This document shows, in pieces, positions 13,466-20,119 of a DNA stretch of 64,000 nucleotides. The stretch comes from Escherichia coli. Lineage in GTDB: Bacteria; Pseudomonadota; Gammaproteobacteria; Enterobacterales; Enterobacteriaceae. Under the pieces are notes generated by a model that searched no databases, had not been told where the DNA came from, and saw only the letters and a list, made by a program, of their open reading frames with translations. Location: the NCBI RefSeq assembly GCF_030013205.1, contig NZ_CP122648.1. One strand, given 5' to 3'. How positions within the stretch are numbered: the first letter of the stretch is position 1; each line of letters opens with the position of its first letter. The translations under genes and the position numbers were made by a program.

Positions 13466-14314
13466 ATGAACAACATATTAGGCTCATCAATTAATATGCC
13501 CTGTACACTTTTCGAAACTATTACTTTATTCGATGATTTTTCTGCTGATGATATGCAATATGGGGATATGGAAGAACAAGATTTTCTCTCACTCGGCTTA
13601 AGCGACATCTCTGCAAAAGTTGATCCTTACCGCCTCATTAAATACCATTTTCCTGGGCCGAATTCTACTTATGGTGCTTTTAGTGTTCCAACTTCCGGAA
13701 CAAAAATATCACAAAGTGAATGTATTGATATTTTATTTGCAGAAATGAAAGATCTGGCAAAAATGTTTTCCTTTTTTGGACAATACAAAACACTCATCCA
13801 GGATCTGATTGATCATTTTAGATATGGAAATGGCAACAGTTTCCATAGCCAGGAATTGAACTTATCTTTTCATGAACGAATAAACAAATATGATTATAAT
13901 AGCCCAATACGTGTAATCAAAGAATGTATCGAAAATAATATTTCTTCAACACCTACGATAGGATACCGGCCTCTTCTCCTACAAAAGATTAAGATCGAAT
14001 TACTTTCATCAAGACTAAATAAATTCAATGATTTTAAAGATAATTTTAATGGCCTGGGAATCAGCATTCATGATATCTCAGCTCAAAAAATCTCTCTTTT
14101 AAATTTTCAAAAATATCCTATGGGCTGGAGCGCTACCATTCATTTCATAGCACAAGACCACTTTGGTTTGGATGTAACTGATATAAAAAACAAGACTTAC
14201 AGCAAATATAGATTTTTTCGCATATGGTTCTTTTTACAACGGCATAAAGACTTTGCTTTCAAACCTTTTTTCACCAATTTTAACACTATCGAAAGAATCG
14301 AAAATTATCTATGA
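13466..14314 (+). CDS. hypothetical soluble 282-aa protein, no signal peptide; accessory, AT-rich
   Basis: Clean ORF in visibly AT-rich DNA; Lys/Asn/Ile-rich AT-type codon usage; stop overlaps next start (ATGA at 14311-14314); may be DUF3289-like, from memory only. Confidence 0.6.
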   Translation: MNNILGSSINMPCTLFETITLFDDFSADDMQYGDMEEQDFLSLGLSDISAKVDPYRLIKYHFPGPNSTYGAFSVPTSGTKISQSECIDILFAEMKDLAKMFSFFGQYKTLIQDLIDHFRYGNGNSFHSQELNLSFHERINKYDYNSPIRVIKECIENNISSTPTIGYRPLLLQKIKIELLSSRLNKFNDFKDNFNGLGISIHDISAQKISLLNFQKYPMGWSATIHFIAQDHFGLDVTDIKNKTYSKYRFFRIWFFLQRHKDFAFKPFFTNFNTIERIENYL

Positions 14315-14802
14315 AAAGTAAACTCCAGAAAATTATATTATGTTTATTTCTTCTATGCTGCATCTATAATTTATGGACATTGCGTCCTGTACAGATTTTG
14401 TATACATACTCTGATGCTGGCAATTCAGTCTTTCTGGTCGTTGATCATCTGCCATGGACTGACAGCGATAAAATAAATTGGTATCTGAAGCATCAGAATG
14501 AAATTAAAAATCAACATCCCCTACCAGAAGGTAGTTGGCATACCTGGTATGTCATTGATATCGGTAATGGCTTCACTGACTATAAAAAATATATCGAAGG
14601 GCCGTATGAAGATCTCTACTGTTTCCCGACAATTAAGAGCAATGATAATTGCATCGTGAAAAATTACTTAATGGTTATTAATGAATACCCTTATCGTAAC
14701 ACTCATATTGGTATTAACGATTTTACTGAGTATCAATTAACACAAGAAAATAAAATAGAGCGAGTTTTCAATCCGCATGACTTTAAAAAAGACAATTTTT
14801 AG
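14311..14802 (+). CDS. hypothetical 163-aa protein with N-terminal membrane anchor or signal (KIILCLFLLCCIYNLW); candidate periplasmic partner or immunity protein
   Basis: Translationally coupled to upstream ORF; one N-terminal hydrophobic segment then soluble domain; may be DUF943-like, from memory only. Confidence 0.6.
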   Translation: MKSKLQKIILCLFLLCCIYNLWTLRPVQILYTYSDAGNSVFLVVDHLPWTDSDKINWYLKHQNEIKNQHPLPEGSWHTWYVIDIGNGFTDYKKYIEGPYEDLYCFPTIKSNDNCIVKNYLMVINEYPYRNTHIGINDFTEYQLTQENKIERVFNPHDFKKDNF

Positions 14803-16162: not shown

Positions 16163-16927
16163 ATGGCGCATCGGCTACTCATTGGTAAAGGAATGATCAC
16201 CTTGAATCTCAAACGGATTTTTCTCACCCTCACCTTACTTCCCTTGTTTGCTGTTGCCGCTGATGATTGCGCACTCTCAGATCCGGCGCTGACCGTACAG
16301 GCGTATATCGTTAATCCTCAAACAGAGCGGGTGAAAATGTACTGGCAAAAAGCCAATGGCGAAGCGTGGGGAACGTTACATGCTCTGCTGGCGGATATTA
16401 ATAGTCAGGGTCAGGTGCAGATGGCGATGAACGGCGGCATCTATGATGAAAGCTATGCGCCGCTCGGTTTGTACATCGAAAACGGTCAGCAGAAGGTGGC
16501 GTTAAATCTCGCTTCAGGTGAAGGGAATTTCTTTATTCGTCCTGGCGGCGTGTTTTATGTCGCGGGAGATAAAGTCGGCATCGTTCGTCTGGATGCCTTT
16601 AAAACCAGTAAAGAGATTCAGTTTGCGGTGCAGTCAGGGCCAATGTTGATGGAAAACGGCGTAATTAATCCGCGTATTCACCCGAATGTTGCCTCGCGTA
16701 AAATTCGTAACGGTGTAGGGATTAATAAACAAGGGAACGCCGTGTTTTTGTTGAGCCAGCAGGCGACAAATTTTTATGATTTTGCCTGTTATGCCAAAGC
16801 GAAACTGAACGTTGAGCAGTTGCTTTATCTTGATGGCACAATTTCACATATGTATATGAAAGGCGGGGCAATCCCGTGGCAACGCTATCCTTTTGTCACC
16901 ATGATTTCCGTCGAGCGGAAAGGTTAA
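16163..16927 (+). CDS. yigE: DUF2233-family protein with signal peptide
   Basis: 254 aa; divergent from corA as in E. coli. Confidence 0.75.
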   Translation: MAHRLLIGKGMITLNLKRIFLTLTLLPLFAVAADDCALSDPALTVQAYIVNPQTERVKMYWQKANGEAWGTLHALLADINSQGQVQMAMNGGIYDESYAPLGLYIENGQQKVALNLASGEGNFFIRPGGVFYVAGDKVGIVRLDAFKTSKEIQFAVQSGPMLMENGVINPRIHPNVASRKIRNGVGINKQGNAVFLLSQQATNFYDFACYAKAKLNVEQLLYLDGTISHMYMKGGAIPWQRYPFVTMISVERKG

Positions 16928-17009
16928 GCATTGTACACTCGAGGAGGCCAGACAAACTGGGACTGGCTACACAGCTGGAAAATCATCAGATAAATGAAGG
17001 GAAACAAAA

Positions 17010-17912
17010 ATGAAAAAAACGCTCGCAACGTTATTTTTATTAACGTGTCTGGGATCATCATCCGCCTATGCGGATAACGCTTTGATTTTACAAACTGATT
17101 TTAGCCTGAAAGATGGTGCCGTCTCGGCGATGAAAGGGGTCGCATTCGGCGTTGACCATAATCTTAAAATCTTTGATTTAACACACGAAATTCCACCGTA
17201 TAACATCTGGGAAGGCGCTTATCGCCTGTATCAGACTGCCAGTTACTGGCCGCAAGGTTCGGTGTTTGTTAGCGTGGTCGATCCGGGCGTAGGCACTGAC
17301 CGTAAATCGGTAGTGCTGAAAACCAAAAACGGTCAATACTTCGTTTCACCAGATAACGGTACGCTCACTTTGGTGGCACAAACTCTGGGTATTGATAGCG
17401 TCCGGGAAATCGACGAAAAAGCTAACCGCCTGAAAGGTTCTGAAAAGTCATATACCTTCCATGGTCGCGATGTATATGCCTACACTGGTGCGCGTCTGGC
17501 TTCCGGAGCGATTACGTTCGAACAGGTGGGGCCAGAGCTTCCTGCAAAAGTTGTCGAACTTTCTTATCAGAAAGCAAAAGCAACAAAAGGTGAAGTGAAG
17601 GGCAATATCCCGATTCTCGATATTCAGTACGGCAACGTCTGGAGCAATATCAGCGACGAGTTGCTGAATCAGGCAGGAATCAAACTCAACGACACGTTGT
17701 GTGTGACCATTTCCGAAGGTTCCCAGCAAAAATACGCAGGGAAAATGCCGTATGTCGCAAGCTTCGGCGATGTGCCGGAAGGCCAGCCGATGGTGTATCT
17801 GAACAGCTTATTGAATGTTTCCGTGGCGCTGAATATGGATAATTTTGCGCAGAAACATCAGGTTGCGTCTGGTGCTGACTGGAATATTGATGTGAAGAAG
17901 TGCGCTAAGTAA
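17010..17912 (+). CDS. DUF62-family protein (SAM hydroxide adenosyltransferase / fluorinase-chlorinase fold) with Sec signal peptide
   Basis: 300 aa; signal MKKTLATLFLLTCLGSSSAYA; blocks LILQTDF, VVDPGVGTDRKSVVL, YFVSPDNGTL, DIQYGNVWSNI and VYLNS parallel the DUF62/fluorinase family as I recall it. Confidence 0.65.
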   Translation: MKKTLATLFLLTCLGSSSAYADNALILQTDFSLKDGAVSAMKGVAFGVDHNLKIFDLTHEIPPYNIWEGAYRLYQTASYWPQGSVFVSVVDPGVGTDRKSVVLKTKNGQYFVSPDNGTLTLVAQTLGIDSVREIDEKANRLKGSEKSYTFHGRDVYAYTGARLASGAITFEQVGPELPAKVVELSYQKAKATKGEVKGNIPILDIQYGNVWSNISDELLNQAGIKLNDTLCVTISEGSQQKYAGKMPYVASFGDVPEGQPMVYLNSLLNVSVALNMDNFAQKHQVASGADWNIDVKKCAK

Positions 17913-17956
17913 GGTGCTGATGCGGAATGCGGTGTGGCGCACCGCATCCCGCAACG

Positions 17957-20119
17957 TCACACCGTCTCCAACCGGGCATAAGCCGCCACCAGCCATTTAA
18001 TACCCTGGCCCTGGAACGCCACCTGCAAACGGCTATGCTCACCGCTGCCTTCCATATTGACAATGGTGCCTTCACCAAACTTAGCGTGGCGTACGCGCTG
18101 GCCGAGCTTGTAGCCGCTGTCGTTCTCGACCATCGGCGTACCCATCCGTTGATGGCTGACCGGGCGGCTTACCGTGGCGCGCAGGCGCACCTCTTCCACA
18201 CACTCTTCCGGCAGCTCGCCGATAAAGCGCGACGGGCGATGGTAAACTTCTTTGCCATACAGACGGCGGGTTTCCGCGTAGGTCAGCGTCAGTTTCTGCA
18301 TCGCGCGGGTTACGCCAACGTAGGCCAGACGGCGTTCTTCTTCCAGACGCCCACCTTCATCCAGCGACATCTGGCTTGGGAACATGCCCTCTTCCATACC
18401 GACGATAAACACCTGCGGGAACTCCAGACCTTTCGCCGAGTGTAGCGTCATCAACTGCACCGCATCCTGCCAGGTATCCGCCTGCCCCTCGCCCGCTTCC
18501 AGTGCCGCATGGGAGAGGAACGCCTGCAGCGGCATTAAATCTTCGTCTTCTTCGTTGTAGCTGAACTGGCGCGTCGCCGTCACCAGTTCCTCTAAGTTTT
18601 CGATACGCGTCTGGCCTTTTTCGCCTTTCTCCTGCTCGTACATTGTGCGCAGGCCGGAGTCTTTAATTACCCGGTCAGTCTGTACATGCAGCGGCATATC
18701 GGCAGTTTCCTGCGCTAAGGCGTCGATCAGTTCCATAAACCGCTGTAAGGCACTGGCAGCACGTCCGGCGAGGGCTTTTTCCTGCAACAGTTCACGACAT
18801 GCCTGCCAGAGTGTTAACTGGCGATCGCGCGATGTCTGACGTACCACGTCCAGCGTCCGGTCACCAATACCCCGCGTTGGTGTATTCACCACGCGCTCAA
18901 AGGCCGCGTCGTCATTACGGTTGGCAATCAGGCGCAGATACGAGAGCGCATCTTTGATTTCCTGGCGTTCGAAGAATCGCATCCCGCCGTAAATACGGTA
19001 CGGCATACTTGCCTGTAACAGTGCTTCTTCCAGCACACGCGACTGGGCGTTGCTGCGGTAGAGAATGGCGCACTCGGCAAGCGCCCCGCCGTTGTCCTGC
19101 CAGGTTTTGATACGGTTAACCACAAAACGCGCTTCATCGAGTTCGTTAAAAGCGCAATAGAGGGAAATAGGCTCACCATCCGCGCCATCGGTCCACAGTT
19201 TTTTACCCAAACGCCCGTTGTTGTTTTCAATCAGGGCGTTCGCGGCGCTCAGAATATTGCTGGTAGAGCGGTAGTTCTGCTCCAGACGGATAGTTTCAGC
19301 ACCGGGGAAATCATTGAGGAAACGCTGAATATTCTCCACCTGCGCTCCACGCCAGCCGTAGATTGACTGATCGTCATCGCCAACGATCATCACTTTGCCG
19401 GTATCGCCCGCCAGCAGGCGGATCCACGCATACTGAATGTTGTTGGTATCCTGGAATTCGTCCACCAGGATATTGGTAAACCGTTCGCGATAGTGCTGAA
19501 GGATATGCGGCTTGTTAAGCCACAACTCGTGAGCACGTAGCAGCAGCTCGGCGAAGTCCACCAGGCCCGCGCGGTCACACGCTTCCTGATACGCCTGATA
19601 CACCTTCTGCCAGGTCTGCTCCACCGGATTACCGTAGCTTTGAATATGATGTGGACGCAGGCCTTCATCTTTCTGGCTGTTGATGTACCACATTGCCTGG
19701 CGCGGCGGCCACTGCTTCTCGTCGAGGTTCATCGCCTTGATTAGGCGTTTGAGCAGGCGTAGCTGGTCCTCGCTGTCGAGGATCTGAAAATCCTGCGGCA
19801 GATTGGCGTCCATATGGTGCGCACGCAGCAGACGGTGCGCCAGCCCGTGGAAGGTGCCGACCCACATGCCGCCCTGGCTGGTGCCCATCAGCTGCCCGAT
19901 ACGATGACGCATCTCCGCCGCCGCTTTGTTGGTAAACGTTACCGCCATAATCGAATATGGCGAGCAGTTTTCCACGCTCATCAGCCAGGCGATACGGTGC
20001 ACCAGTACGCGCGTCTTACCACTGCCCGCGCCCGCCAGCACCAGAAGGTTGCTGCGTGGCGCGGCCACCGCTTCGCGCTGTTTGTCATTAAGGCTGTCGA
20101 GCAGGTAAGAAACGTCCAT
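17957..20119 (-). CDS. uvrD: DNA helicase II
   Basis: ORF track is over-extended to 783 aa; trimmed to MDVSYLLDSLNDKQREAV start (720 aa); UvrD/Rep helicase motifs. Confidence 0.95.
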   Translation of the reverse strand: MDVSYLLDSLNDKQREAVAAPRSNLLVLAGAGSGKTRVLVHRIAWLMSVENCSPYSIMAVTFTNKAAAEMRHRIGQLMGTSQGGMWVGTFHGLAHRLLRAHHMDANLPQDFQILDSEDQLRLLKRLIKAMNLDEKQWPPRQAMWYINSQKDEGLRPHHIQSYGNPVEQTWQKVYQAYQEACDRAGLVDFAELLLRAHELWLNKPHILQHYRERFTNILVDEFQDTNNIQYAWIRLLAGDTGKVMIVGDDDQSIYGWRGAQVENIQRFLNDFPGAETIRLEQNYRSTSNILSAANALIENNNGRLGKKLWTDGADGEPISLYCAFNELDEARFVVNRIKTWQDNGGALAECAILYRSNAQSRVLEEALLQASMPYRIYGGMRFFERQEIKDALSYLRLIANRNDDAAFERVVNTPTRGIGDRTLDVVRQTSRDRQLTLWQACRELLQEKALAGRAASALQRFMELIDALAQETADMPLHVQTDRVIKDSGLRTMYEQEKGEKGQTRIENLEELVTATRQFSYNEEDEDLMPLQAFLSHAALEAGEGQADTWQDAVQLMTLHSAKGLEFPQVFIVGMEEGMFPSQMSLDEGGRLEEERRLAYVGVTRAMQKLTLTYAETRRLYGKEVYHRPSRFIGELPEECVEEVRLRATVSRPVSHQRMGTPMVENDSGYKLGQRVRHAKFGEGTIVNMEGSGEHSRLQVAFQGQGIKWLVAAYARLETV

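Follow-up and report, generated by a model that had tools for sequence, protein, structure and literature searches.

The 64,000-nucleotide stretch of Escherichia coli DNA analysed here (contig NZ_CP122648.1 of assembly GCF_030013205.1; hereafter the window) carries, between yigE and uvrD, a gene for a member of the SAM_HAT/DUF62 family of S-adenosylmethionine (SAM) hydrolases and halogenases that is preceded by a predicted signal peptide. A sequence-only reading of this DNA had placed a 300-aa open reading frame (ORF) at 17010-17912, and both the ORF list and the raw sequence confirm a single ORF there, on the + strand, with an ATG start, 300 codons and a TAA stop. The start of the ORF at 17010 reads MKKTLATLFLLTCLGSSSAYADNALILQTDF, and the encoded protein opens with MKKTLATLFLLTCLGSSSAYA followed by DNALILQTDF. 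The features of the locus are listed below, with a slash marking the predicted cut of signal peptidase I (SPase I); dN and dS denote nonsynonymous and synonymous substitutions per site.

17010..17912, + strand: complete coding sequence (CDS) of the predicted exported SAM_HAT/DUF62-family protein, 300 codons plus TAA, dN/dS 0.03-0.06
16997..17002, + strand: Shine-Dalgarno-like AAGGGA, 7 nt 5' of the ATG, read directly in the sequence
17010..17072, + strand: predicted signal peptide, residues 1-21, with n-region MKK, h-region TLATLFLLTCLG and c-region SSSAYA; predicted SPase I cut after Ala21 (AYA/DN)
17085..17531, + strand: SAM_HAT N-terminal domain, residues 26-174, including Asp30 (the family's ribose-binding Asp) and the PxNG motif P114-D-N116-G117
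17280..17303, + strand: DPGVGTDR segment, with triad residues Asp91 (17280-17282) and Arg98 (17301-17303)
17457..17471, + strand: FHGRD motif, whose His151 (17460-17462) completes the triad
17601..17882, + strand: SAM_HAT_C beta domain, residues 198-291, including L203-D204-I-Q-Y207-G208-N209, which corresponds to the family's IDxxFGN motif
17700..17702, + strand: Cys231 codon, partner of Cys298 in a putative periplasmic disulfide
17901..17903, + strand: Cys298 codon, partner of Cys231 in the putative disulfide
16928..17920, no strand assigned: segment of ~990 bp that is present or absent relative to K-12-type genomes, where the spacer is 146 bp long and includes a REP-like element
16163..16927, + strand: yigE, phosphodiester glycosidase family (DUF2233), the upstream neighbor on the same strand
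17957..20119, - strand: uvrD, the convergent downstream neighbor

Relative to other E. coli and Helicobacter alleles, the gene is under strongly purifying selection (dN/dS 0.03-0.06); because it also matches the Pfam SAM_HAT models and has relatives of solved structure, it is a genuine gene and not a chance ORF. An E. coli strain isolated from urine in Norway, 50579417, is 100% identical to the whole window. There, the same CDS is WP_000751627.1, lies between yigE and uvrD, and is named "SAM hydrolase/SAM-dependent halogenase family protein" by the Prokaryotic Genome Annotation Pipeline (PGAP).

Both domains of the family are recovered at nearly full model length. SAM_HAT_N (PF01887) matches residues 26-174 (E 4.9e-53, model positions 2-145 of 145) and SAM_HAT_C (PF20257) matches residues 198-291 (E 3.9e-18, model positions 1-83 of 84). 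Sequence matches in the PDB are to DUF62, chlorinase or fluorinase proteins only, with T. maritima 2zbu the best (1.3e-43), followed among others by SalL (~1e-35) and PH0463 (~1e-33). An AlphaFold monomer model built on a 26-sequence alignment reached a mean predicted local distance difference test (pLDDT) score of 90 and a predicted template modelling (TM) score of 0.83; its N-terminus is the poorly modelled part, with a mean pLDDT of 51 over residues 1-20 and no secondary structure assigned to residues 1-23. When this model was compared with the PDB by Foldseek, all 40 matches at E <= 1e-3 were DUF62, SalL or fluorinase structures (best 2zbu, E 8.5e-31), with target-normalised TM-scores of 0.77-0.88. 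As modelled, the protein has the two-domain DUF62 fold, i.e., an alpha/beta N-domain and a beta C-domain. The sequence-only reading had assigned the ORF to DUF62 from its sequence blocks, and profile, PDB and fold comparisons bear this out; the Pfam search proposed alongside that assignment placed the protein in this family.

Members of the family are marked by the motifs PxNGL and IDxxFGN together with equivalents of FlA Asp16 and Asn215, and the water-activating triad of the hydrolases has been defined as D68-R75-H127 of PH0463 (PMC4859513). In the E. coli protein, D91 and R98 lie in DPGVGTDR with the same D+7 spacing as in PH0463, and H151 lies in FHGRD. We followed these positions through 71 relatives, i.e., close relatives from a scan of one genome per species (best 80 loci) that span many phyla, aligned together and referred to here as the exported clade. 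D91 and R98 are invariant (71/71 each) and H151 is kept in 67/71, while D30, N116/G117, D204 and G208/N209 are each retained in 70-71 of the 71, the PxNG motif reading P114-D-N116-G117-T. Because Asp91, Arg98 and His151 are present in this protein and absent in SalL and ClA1, the active site is predicted to be of the hydrolase rather than the halogenase type, with hydrolysis as the expected reaction.

The first 21 residues follow the tripartite layout of a signal peptide (MKK, TLATLFLLTCLG and SSSAYA/D), with a top 9-residue Kyte-Doolittle hydropathy of 2.3. Orthologues in Helicobacter pylori (HP0709/jhp0648) and H. acinonychis start at the identical ATG and carry the signals MKKTILALFLSTCIGLSSVHA/DN and MRKTILALFLVVHIGSSSVYA/DN, ending in VYA/DN and VHA/DN, respectively. 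Despite substitutions between the E. coli and Helicobacter signals, the core stays hydrophobic and positions -3 and -1 are still occupied by small residues, and codons 1-21 diverge at a dN of 0.20 against 0.044 for the mature part, the faster change being typical of signal peptides. DNA homology between E. coli and Helicobacter begins exactly at the ATG (17010) and stops 7 nt past the stop codon; the Helicobacter genes have their own AGGA/AAGGAG motifs before the shared ATG, and the DNA 5' of it is unrelated.

Across the exported clade, a hydrophobic extension of 20-45 residues precedes the conserved (L/I)VxxTDF start in 71/71 members, compared with 4-8 residues in cytoplasmic representatives. 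Moreover, Cys231 and Cys298 covary perfectly (both in 32 of the 71, neither in 39, a single one in 0), which suggests that they form a disulfide in an oxidising compartment. Judged by these features, the N-terminus is a conserved, cleavable-type Sec/SPase I signal peptide, the start codon is no artefact, and the E. coli protein is probably periplasmic. The Sec-type signal peptide seen in the sequence-only reading is thus upheld by its layout, by the ATG shared with Helicobacter and by its presence throughout the clade. The reading had also regarded a periplasmic or secreted DUF62 protein as unusual, and this does not hold. Among the 150 nearest cluster representatives at 50% identity, 65 have signal- or lipoprotein-like N-termini and 46 a short, cytoplasmic-type N-terminus, the rest comprising 5 with a long non-hydrophobic extension and 34 that are fragments or miss the motif. 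Exported DUF62 proteins are common across phyla, and all members of the clade defined here have the hydrophobic extension. In the literature searched, no paper was found on a SAM hydrolase or DUF62 protein that is exported, resides in the periplasm or bears a signal peptide. Some signal-bearing DUF62 proteins are longer: two Fervidobacterium metagenome-assembled genomes (MAGs; L074 4971-6890 and L081 4953-6875) and P0161 (672 aa) encode fusions of ~640-670 aa in which the DUF62 part is N-terminal and an uncharacterised extension is C-terminal.

The nearest counterparts are the DUF62 hydrolases PH0463, MJ1651, T. maritima 2zbu and Salinispora StDUF62. The E. coli protein has both of their Pfam domains, their fold (target-normalised TM-score 0.82-0.87) and their triad, together with motifs of the PxNG and IDxxFGN types and the Asp that binds ribose. 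It differs from them in its cleavable-type signal peptide and covarying Cys pair, and identity is only 30-35%. For cytoplasmic members, repair of (R,S)-SAM has been proposed (bioRxiv 10.1101/2025.08.29.672840), but removal of (R,S)-SAM from the cytoplasm cannot apply to a periplasmic protein. The SalL chlorinase and FlA fluorinase share the fold and, presumably, the bimolecular nucleophilic substitution (SN2) chemistry at C5' of SAM, SalL being 30% identical; relative to these enzymes (SalL Tyr70; FlA Thr and Ser158), the E. coli protein has the hydrolase triad in place of the halogenase segments and is not part of a biosynthetic gene cluster. By function, a likeness may also be drawn to the E. 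coli periplasmic scavengers UshA, CpdB and AphA. In the proposed logic, a Sec-exported hydrolase would likewise act on a charged compound for which there is no import and convert it to a nucleoside that the cell takes up, although the folds are unrelated and the scavengers hydrolyse phosphoesters rather than displace a sulfonium.

We put forward, at roughly even confidence, that the gene product is a SAM hydrolase exported by Sec and soluble in the periplasm, where it would serve the salvage of adenosine and methionine. The precursor would be exported unfolded via Sec and cut by SPase I after Ala21, and the mature protein would be stabilised by a Cys231-Cys298 disulfide. A homotrimer of the family type, with active sites at the subunit interfaces, would then assemble in the periplasm (an arrangement assumed from the family, the model being of a monomer). 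There, the triad would activate water for attack on C5' of SAM, or of a close sulfonium analogue, that had entered the periplasm, and L-methionine and adenosine would be released. Unlike SAM, both products are compounds that ordinary transporters of nucleosides and methionine could take up. By analogy, the enzyme would be a periplasmic scavenger with a logic like that of UshA and CpdB, not an agent of cytoplasmic (R)-SAM repair.

Several points weigh against this proposal. First, we infer the substrate, the stereoselectivity and the hydrolysis of SAM from residues. The NCBIfam (R)-SAM hydrolase equivalogs NF058624 and NF053629 are missed by a wide margin (131.5 bits vs a cut-off of 350, and 116.9 vs 470); the protein is a family member and not an equivalog of any characterized enzyme, and its PGAP name stays at family level because these cut-offs are not reached. 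Second, while HP0709 is listed in an outer-membrane-vesicle proteome of H. pylori (PMC8756444), this is weak evidence for location because the same proteome lists ribosomal proteins. Third, when the ORFs of the 71 loci were clustered by BLAST, no neighbor was conserved across genera, synteny being confined to single genera such as Aeromonas, and consensus scans upstream of the gene for MetJ, PurR, Fur and ArgR gave nothing above background. With no conserved neighbor and no MetJ, PurR or conserved CRP site, the salvage role is without direct genomic support. Finally, salvage presupposes that the periplasm receives enough SAM to be of use in the gut, urine or stomach.

A few neighborhoods and one transcript may be set beside these points. 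In three MAG loci of Neisseriales/Burkholderiales (L015, L018 and L039), a convergent deoB and a hydrolase-deoC fusion adjoin the gene, and an HD-domain 5'-deoxynucleotidase-like gene adjoins it in H. acinonychis (L006 6975-8219). In H. pylori, the orthologue, under the name salL, was 2.9-fold up in biofilm along with metI (PMC6212823). The deoB/deoC and HD-domain neighbors and the co-induction with metI are weak hints of nucleoside and methionine salvage. An RNase T2 family gene ~4 kb off in Aeromonas (L035 9722-10609) is a further weak hint. The sole apparent cross-phylum neighbor was discarded as a generic RecQ/helicase cluster.

Of the competing explanations, the one that survives best, although we regard it as rather unlikely, is an exported enzyme of this fold whose purpose is other than nutrient salvage from SAM. 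Such an enzyme might destroy a different 5'-substituted adenosine or sulfonium compound outside the cell, for instance SAM that has been decarboxylated, the (R,S)-SAM epimer, which is inactive, or a toxin resembling SAM, or it might, in host-associated bacteria, produce extracellular adenosine as a modulator of host immunity. The clade is indeed distinct from the characterized enzymes, well under the equivalog cut-offs, and has residues of its own, e.g., Tyr207 (Phe in cytoplasmic representatives) and Asn209 (Ser, Asn or Met in cytoplasmic ones). Many carriers are host-associated, including pathogenic E. coli, Shigella, H. pylori, Aeromonas, Edwardsiella and Pasteurellaceae. Variants of the poorly annotated HP0709 are associated with gastric cancer in a genome-wide association study (GWAS; PMC6090961), and a 2025 study concludes that some DUF62 enzymes may have another physiological role (PMC12120602). 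However, the motif residues that bind the ribose, the adenine and the amino group of methionine are all kept, which points to SAM or a near analogue as substrate, and the host-directed form of the explanation sits poorly with a clade that is equally common in Bacteroidota, Verrucomicrobiota and Thermotogota of soil and water.

A periplasmic SAM-dependent halogenase, which would use extracellular chloride to form 5'-chloro-5'-deoxyadenosine in the manner of a chlorinase, is very improbable. It would draw on the SalL fold and the 30% identity to SalL, on the abundance of chloride outside cells, and on names, since the PGAP label allows a halogenase and some H. pylori annotations read adenosyl-chloride synthase. 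Yet in the sequence alignment, SalL and ClA1 have YPETGTAT and WYGKD, without Asp, Arg or His, at the segments where the E. coli protein has D91, R98 and H151; the HMMER alignment sets a Val opposite SalL Tyr70; the TIGR04507 fluorinase model scores 83.9 bits against a 400-bit cut-off; no biosynthetic cluster lies downstream; and DUF62 enzymes with the triad have been characterized without halogenation (PMC4859513, PMC12120602). Halide dependence, which the sequence-only reading had referred to a biochemical assay, is thus largely settled by the hydrolase triad and the lack of SalL-type segments.

We likewise give very little credence to a lipoprotein, lipidated at Cys13 and anchored in the membrane instead of soluble in the periplasm. 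Some H. pylori alleles do carry a canonical lipobox (FLSAC), and lipobox-like motifs occur in 13 of the 65 signal-like cluster representatives. This explanation fails because Cys13 is not conserved (H. acinonychis and H. pylori SA213A have His or Gln there, and only 10/71 clade members have Cys) and because E. coli has LLTC, in which the Thr at -1 falls outside the lipobox [LVI][ASTVI][GAS]C; it is the A-x-A/D site that is conserved instead. Least credible of all is that the signal peptide is an annotation artefact and that a cytoplasmic (R)-SAM hydrolase starts at the in-frame TTG of codon 25 (17082-17084): this TTG sits exactly at the beginning of the conserved domain, and cytoplasmic family members begin 3-8 residues ahead of that domain, but a Shine-Dalgarno sequence is missing before it and a good one precedes the ATG, the 72 nt 5' of it are kept in frame between E. 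coli and Helicobacter (dN/dS ~0.16) with hydrophobic core and cleavage motif preserved while the DNA 5' of the ATG is unrelated, the extension recurs in every clade member, and the covarying Cys pair suits an oxidising compartment.

Within Escherichia, the gene for this putative periplasmic hydrolase occurs as a single chromosomal copy in 2413 of 5426 complete E. coli genomes (44%), and carriers include O157:H7, O145 and avian pathogenic E. coli (APEC) O1; Shigella has it too. K-12 MG1655 and 55989 lack it, as the sequence-only reading had supposed for K-12; their yigE-uvrD spacer is only 146 bp long, shows no visible DUF62 remnant, and holds a REP-like palindrome, GCCGGATGCGGCGTAAACGCCCTATCCGGCC (55989, L002 2329-2474; K-12, L088 3147-3292). 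The gene occupies the same site in Escherichia sp. MOD1-EC7003, a genome that does not belong to the E. coli species cluster. Escherichia alleles differ by a dS of 0.27-0.37 (17010-17909 vs L008 and L009), a value that is high for E. coli, and form two main protein allele groups that are ~96% identical; this suggests old alleles or introgression. Together, the same-site copy in MOD1-EC7003 and the allelic dS indicate that the gene is old within the genus. Since an Escherichia other than E. coli has it at the same site, its loss from K-12-like lineages is as likely as a gain, and of the earlier description of the gene as inserted between yigE and uvrD, the position stands and the insertion is not established. 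A seemingly decaying copy at this site in E. coli HS-02 (NZ_CP172818.1, L089 4915-5772; 81% identity, annotated as a frameshifted pseudogene) was set aside; the region is rich in homopolymer runs, and it therefore looks like an assembly error rather than decay. The neighboring yigF of HS-02 also has an internal stop.

In a search of 5.8 billion proteins, E. coli and Shigella were followed by H. pylori and H. acinonychis, with hundreds of proteins, all of 300 aa, at 89-91% identity. The Helicobacter locus, uvrA-hopE-rsmH-HP0708-[gene]-homA...rpoN, identifies the orthologue as HP0709/jhp0648. By sequence, this is a true orthologue: length, start, signal peptide, triad and Cys pair all agree, and protein identity is 90%. 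It differs in its unrelated genomic context and in composition, a gene of 44.5% GC in a genome of 38% GC, and it is widespread in H. pylori, compared with the 44% of E. coli genomes that carry the gene. GC content at third codon positions (GC3) is 0.49 in the Helicobacter gene, whereas its flanks have 38% GC and a GC3 of ~0.40. DNA identity between the E. coli and Helicobacter genes is 83-84%, falling to 64-66% at third codon positions (dN 0.054, dS ~0.9-1.2, dN/dS 0.05), and the H. pylori and H. acinonychis copies differ from each other by a dN of 0.039 and a dS of 0.42.

In the species scan, whose best 80 loci include just one H. pylori-group genome, H. pylori (88%) was followed by Aeromonas (72-76%) and Edwardsiella piscicida (73%) with none between; further relatives were found in Neisseriales/Burkholderiales MAGs, Pasteurellaceae and Thorsellia. 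A neighbor-joining tree (100 bootstraps) unites Escherichia and Helicobacter in a clade with 100% support, each genus being monophyletic within it (88% and 100%, respectively). Edwardsiella is sister to this clade (73%), followed by Pasteurellaceae, Aeromonas and Neisseriales in a gamma-/betaproteobacterial group.

Given the 90% protein and 83% DNA identity, the nesting among gammaproteobacterial sequences and the GC content that is high for Helicobacter, the simplest reading is horizontal transfer of this ORF alone from an Enterobacterales-like lineage to the forerunner shared by H. pylori and H. acinonychis. Such a transfer explains why HP0709 is the closest relative outside Escherichia; the donor may have been Escherichia itself or an unsampled third party. 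As a dS of 0.42 already separates the two Helicobacter copies, much of the divergence between Escherichia and Helicobacter may come from a fast Helicobacter clock and not from great age. Contamination is excluded because Helicobacter synteny is fixed in complete genomes and DNA identity is only 83%.

Two candidate vehicles for the transfer were rejected. Plasmid matches of the exported type proved to be mislabelled 4.9-Mb chromosomes, and true plasmid matches (Enterococcus) are of the cytoplasmic type. "Helicobacter phage Pt11444_1" (PQ159899.1, L090) contains uvrA, hopE, rsmH, HP0708, HP0709 and homA, i.e., a chromosomal flank beside phage structural genes; because its prophage boundaries are probably over-extended, it is no evidence for phage carriage.

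HP0709 itself is labelled "adenosyl-chloride synthase", "acetolactate synthase" or "hypothetical", and antibodies of patients recognise it as a seroreactive antigen (PMC11394471). It is functionally uncharacterised, being known only from the GWAS hit, the vesicle proteome, this seroreactivity and the biofilm transcript. No paper on the relationship of HP0709 to an E. coli gene was found in the literature searched.

In the window, only 82 bp separate yigE from the DUF62 gene, which has the same orientation, and the two may for that reason be co-transcribed. The YigE protein likewise opens with a signal-like hydrophobic segment. The GC3 of yigE (0.51) is close to that of the DUF62 gene (0.50), and both are below corA (0.62) and uvrD (0.68). 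Scans for promoters and terminators around the DUF62 gene returned nothing beyond shuffled controls. A CRP-like site, TGGGA-N6-ACACA at 16958-16973 (+), which has 8/10 matches and lies 37 bp 5' of the ATG, was rejected because its left half is not kept in another E. coli allele. A second variable spot is found ~2 kb from the DUF62 gene, between rarD and corA, where the window (13466-14802, +) has a YPO3983-family gene (282 aa) and a DUF943 gene (163 aa) and K-12 MG1655 has yigF and yigG.

Overall, the gene is common in E. coli and has a family-level annotation already; its product is an uncharacterised, probably exported variant of the family. It separates K-12-type E. coli from O157:H7, APEC O1 and Shigella, and HP0709 is a clear-cut example of a gene passing between Gammaproteobacteria and Campylobacterota. 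What purpose DUF62 hydrolases serve is a matter of debate, and the sole physiological role proposed for the family, cytoplasmic (R)-SAM repair, does not suit the exported clade, which is unstudied. A large exported clade that spans many phyla cannot perform repair in the cytoplasm, and a second DUF62 role is therefore indicated.

H. pylori requires exogenous methionine and depends on purine salvage. It is conceivable, though we hold it unlikely, that B2/D/E-type E. coli, Shigella and H. pylori share a horizontally exchanged periplasmic SAM-cleaving enzyme by which SAM of the host or microbiota serves as a source of methionine and purine, or by which adenosine is released at the mucosa. If so, SAM harvesting would be a nutritional fitness factor for H. 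pylori and would offer a mechanism for the unexplained gastric-cancer GWAS signal at HP0709. Extracytoplasmic scavenging would then stand beside cytoplasmic (R)-SAM repair as the second role of DUF62 enzymes, and SAM scavenging would be a nutritional trait common to gut and gastric pathogens.

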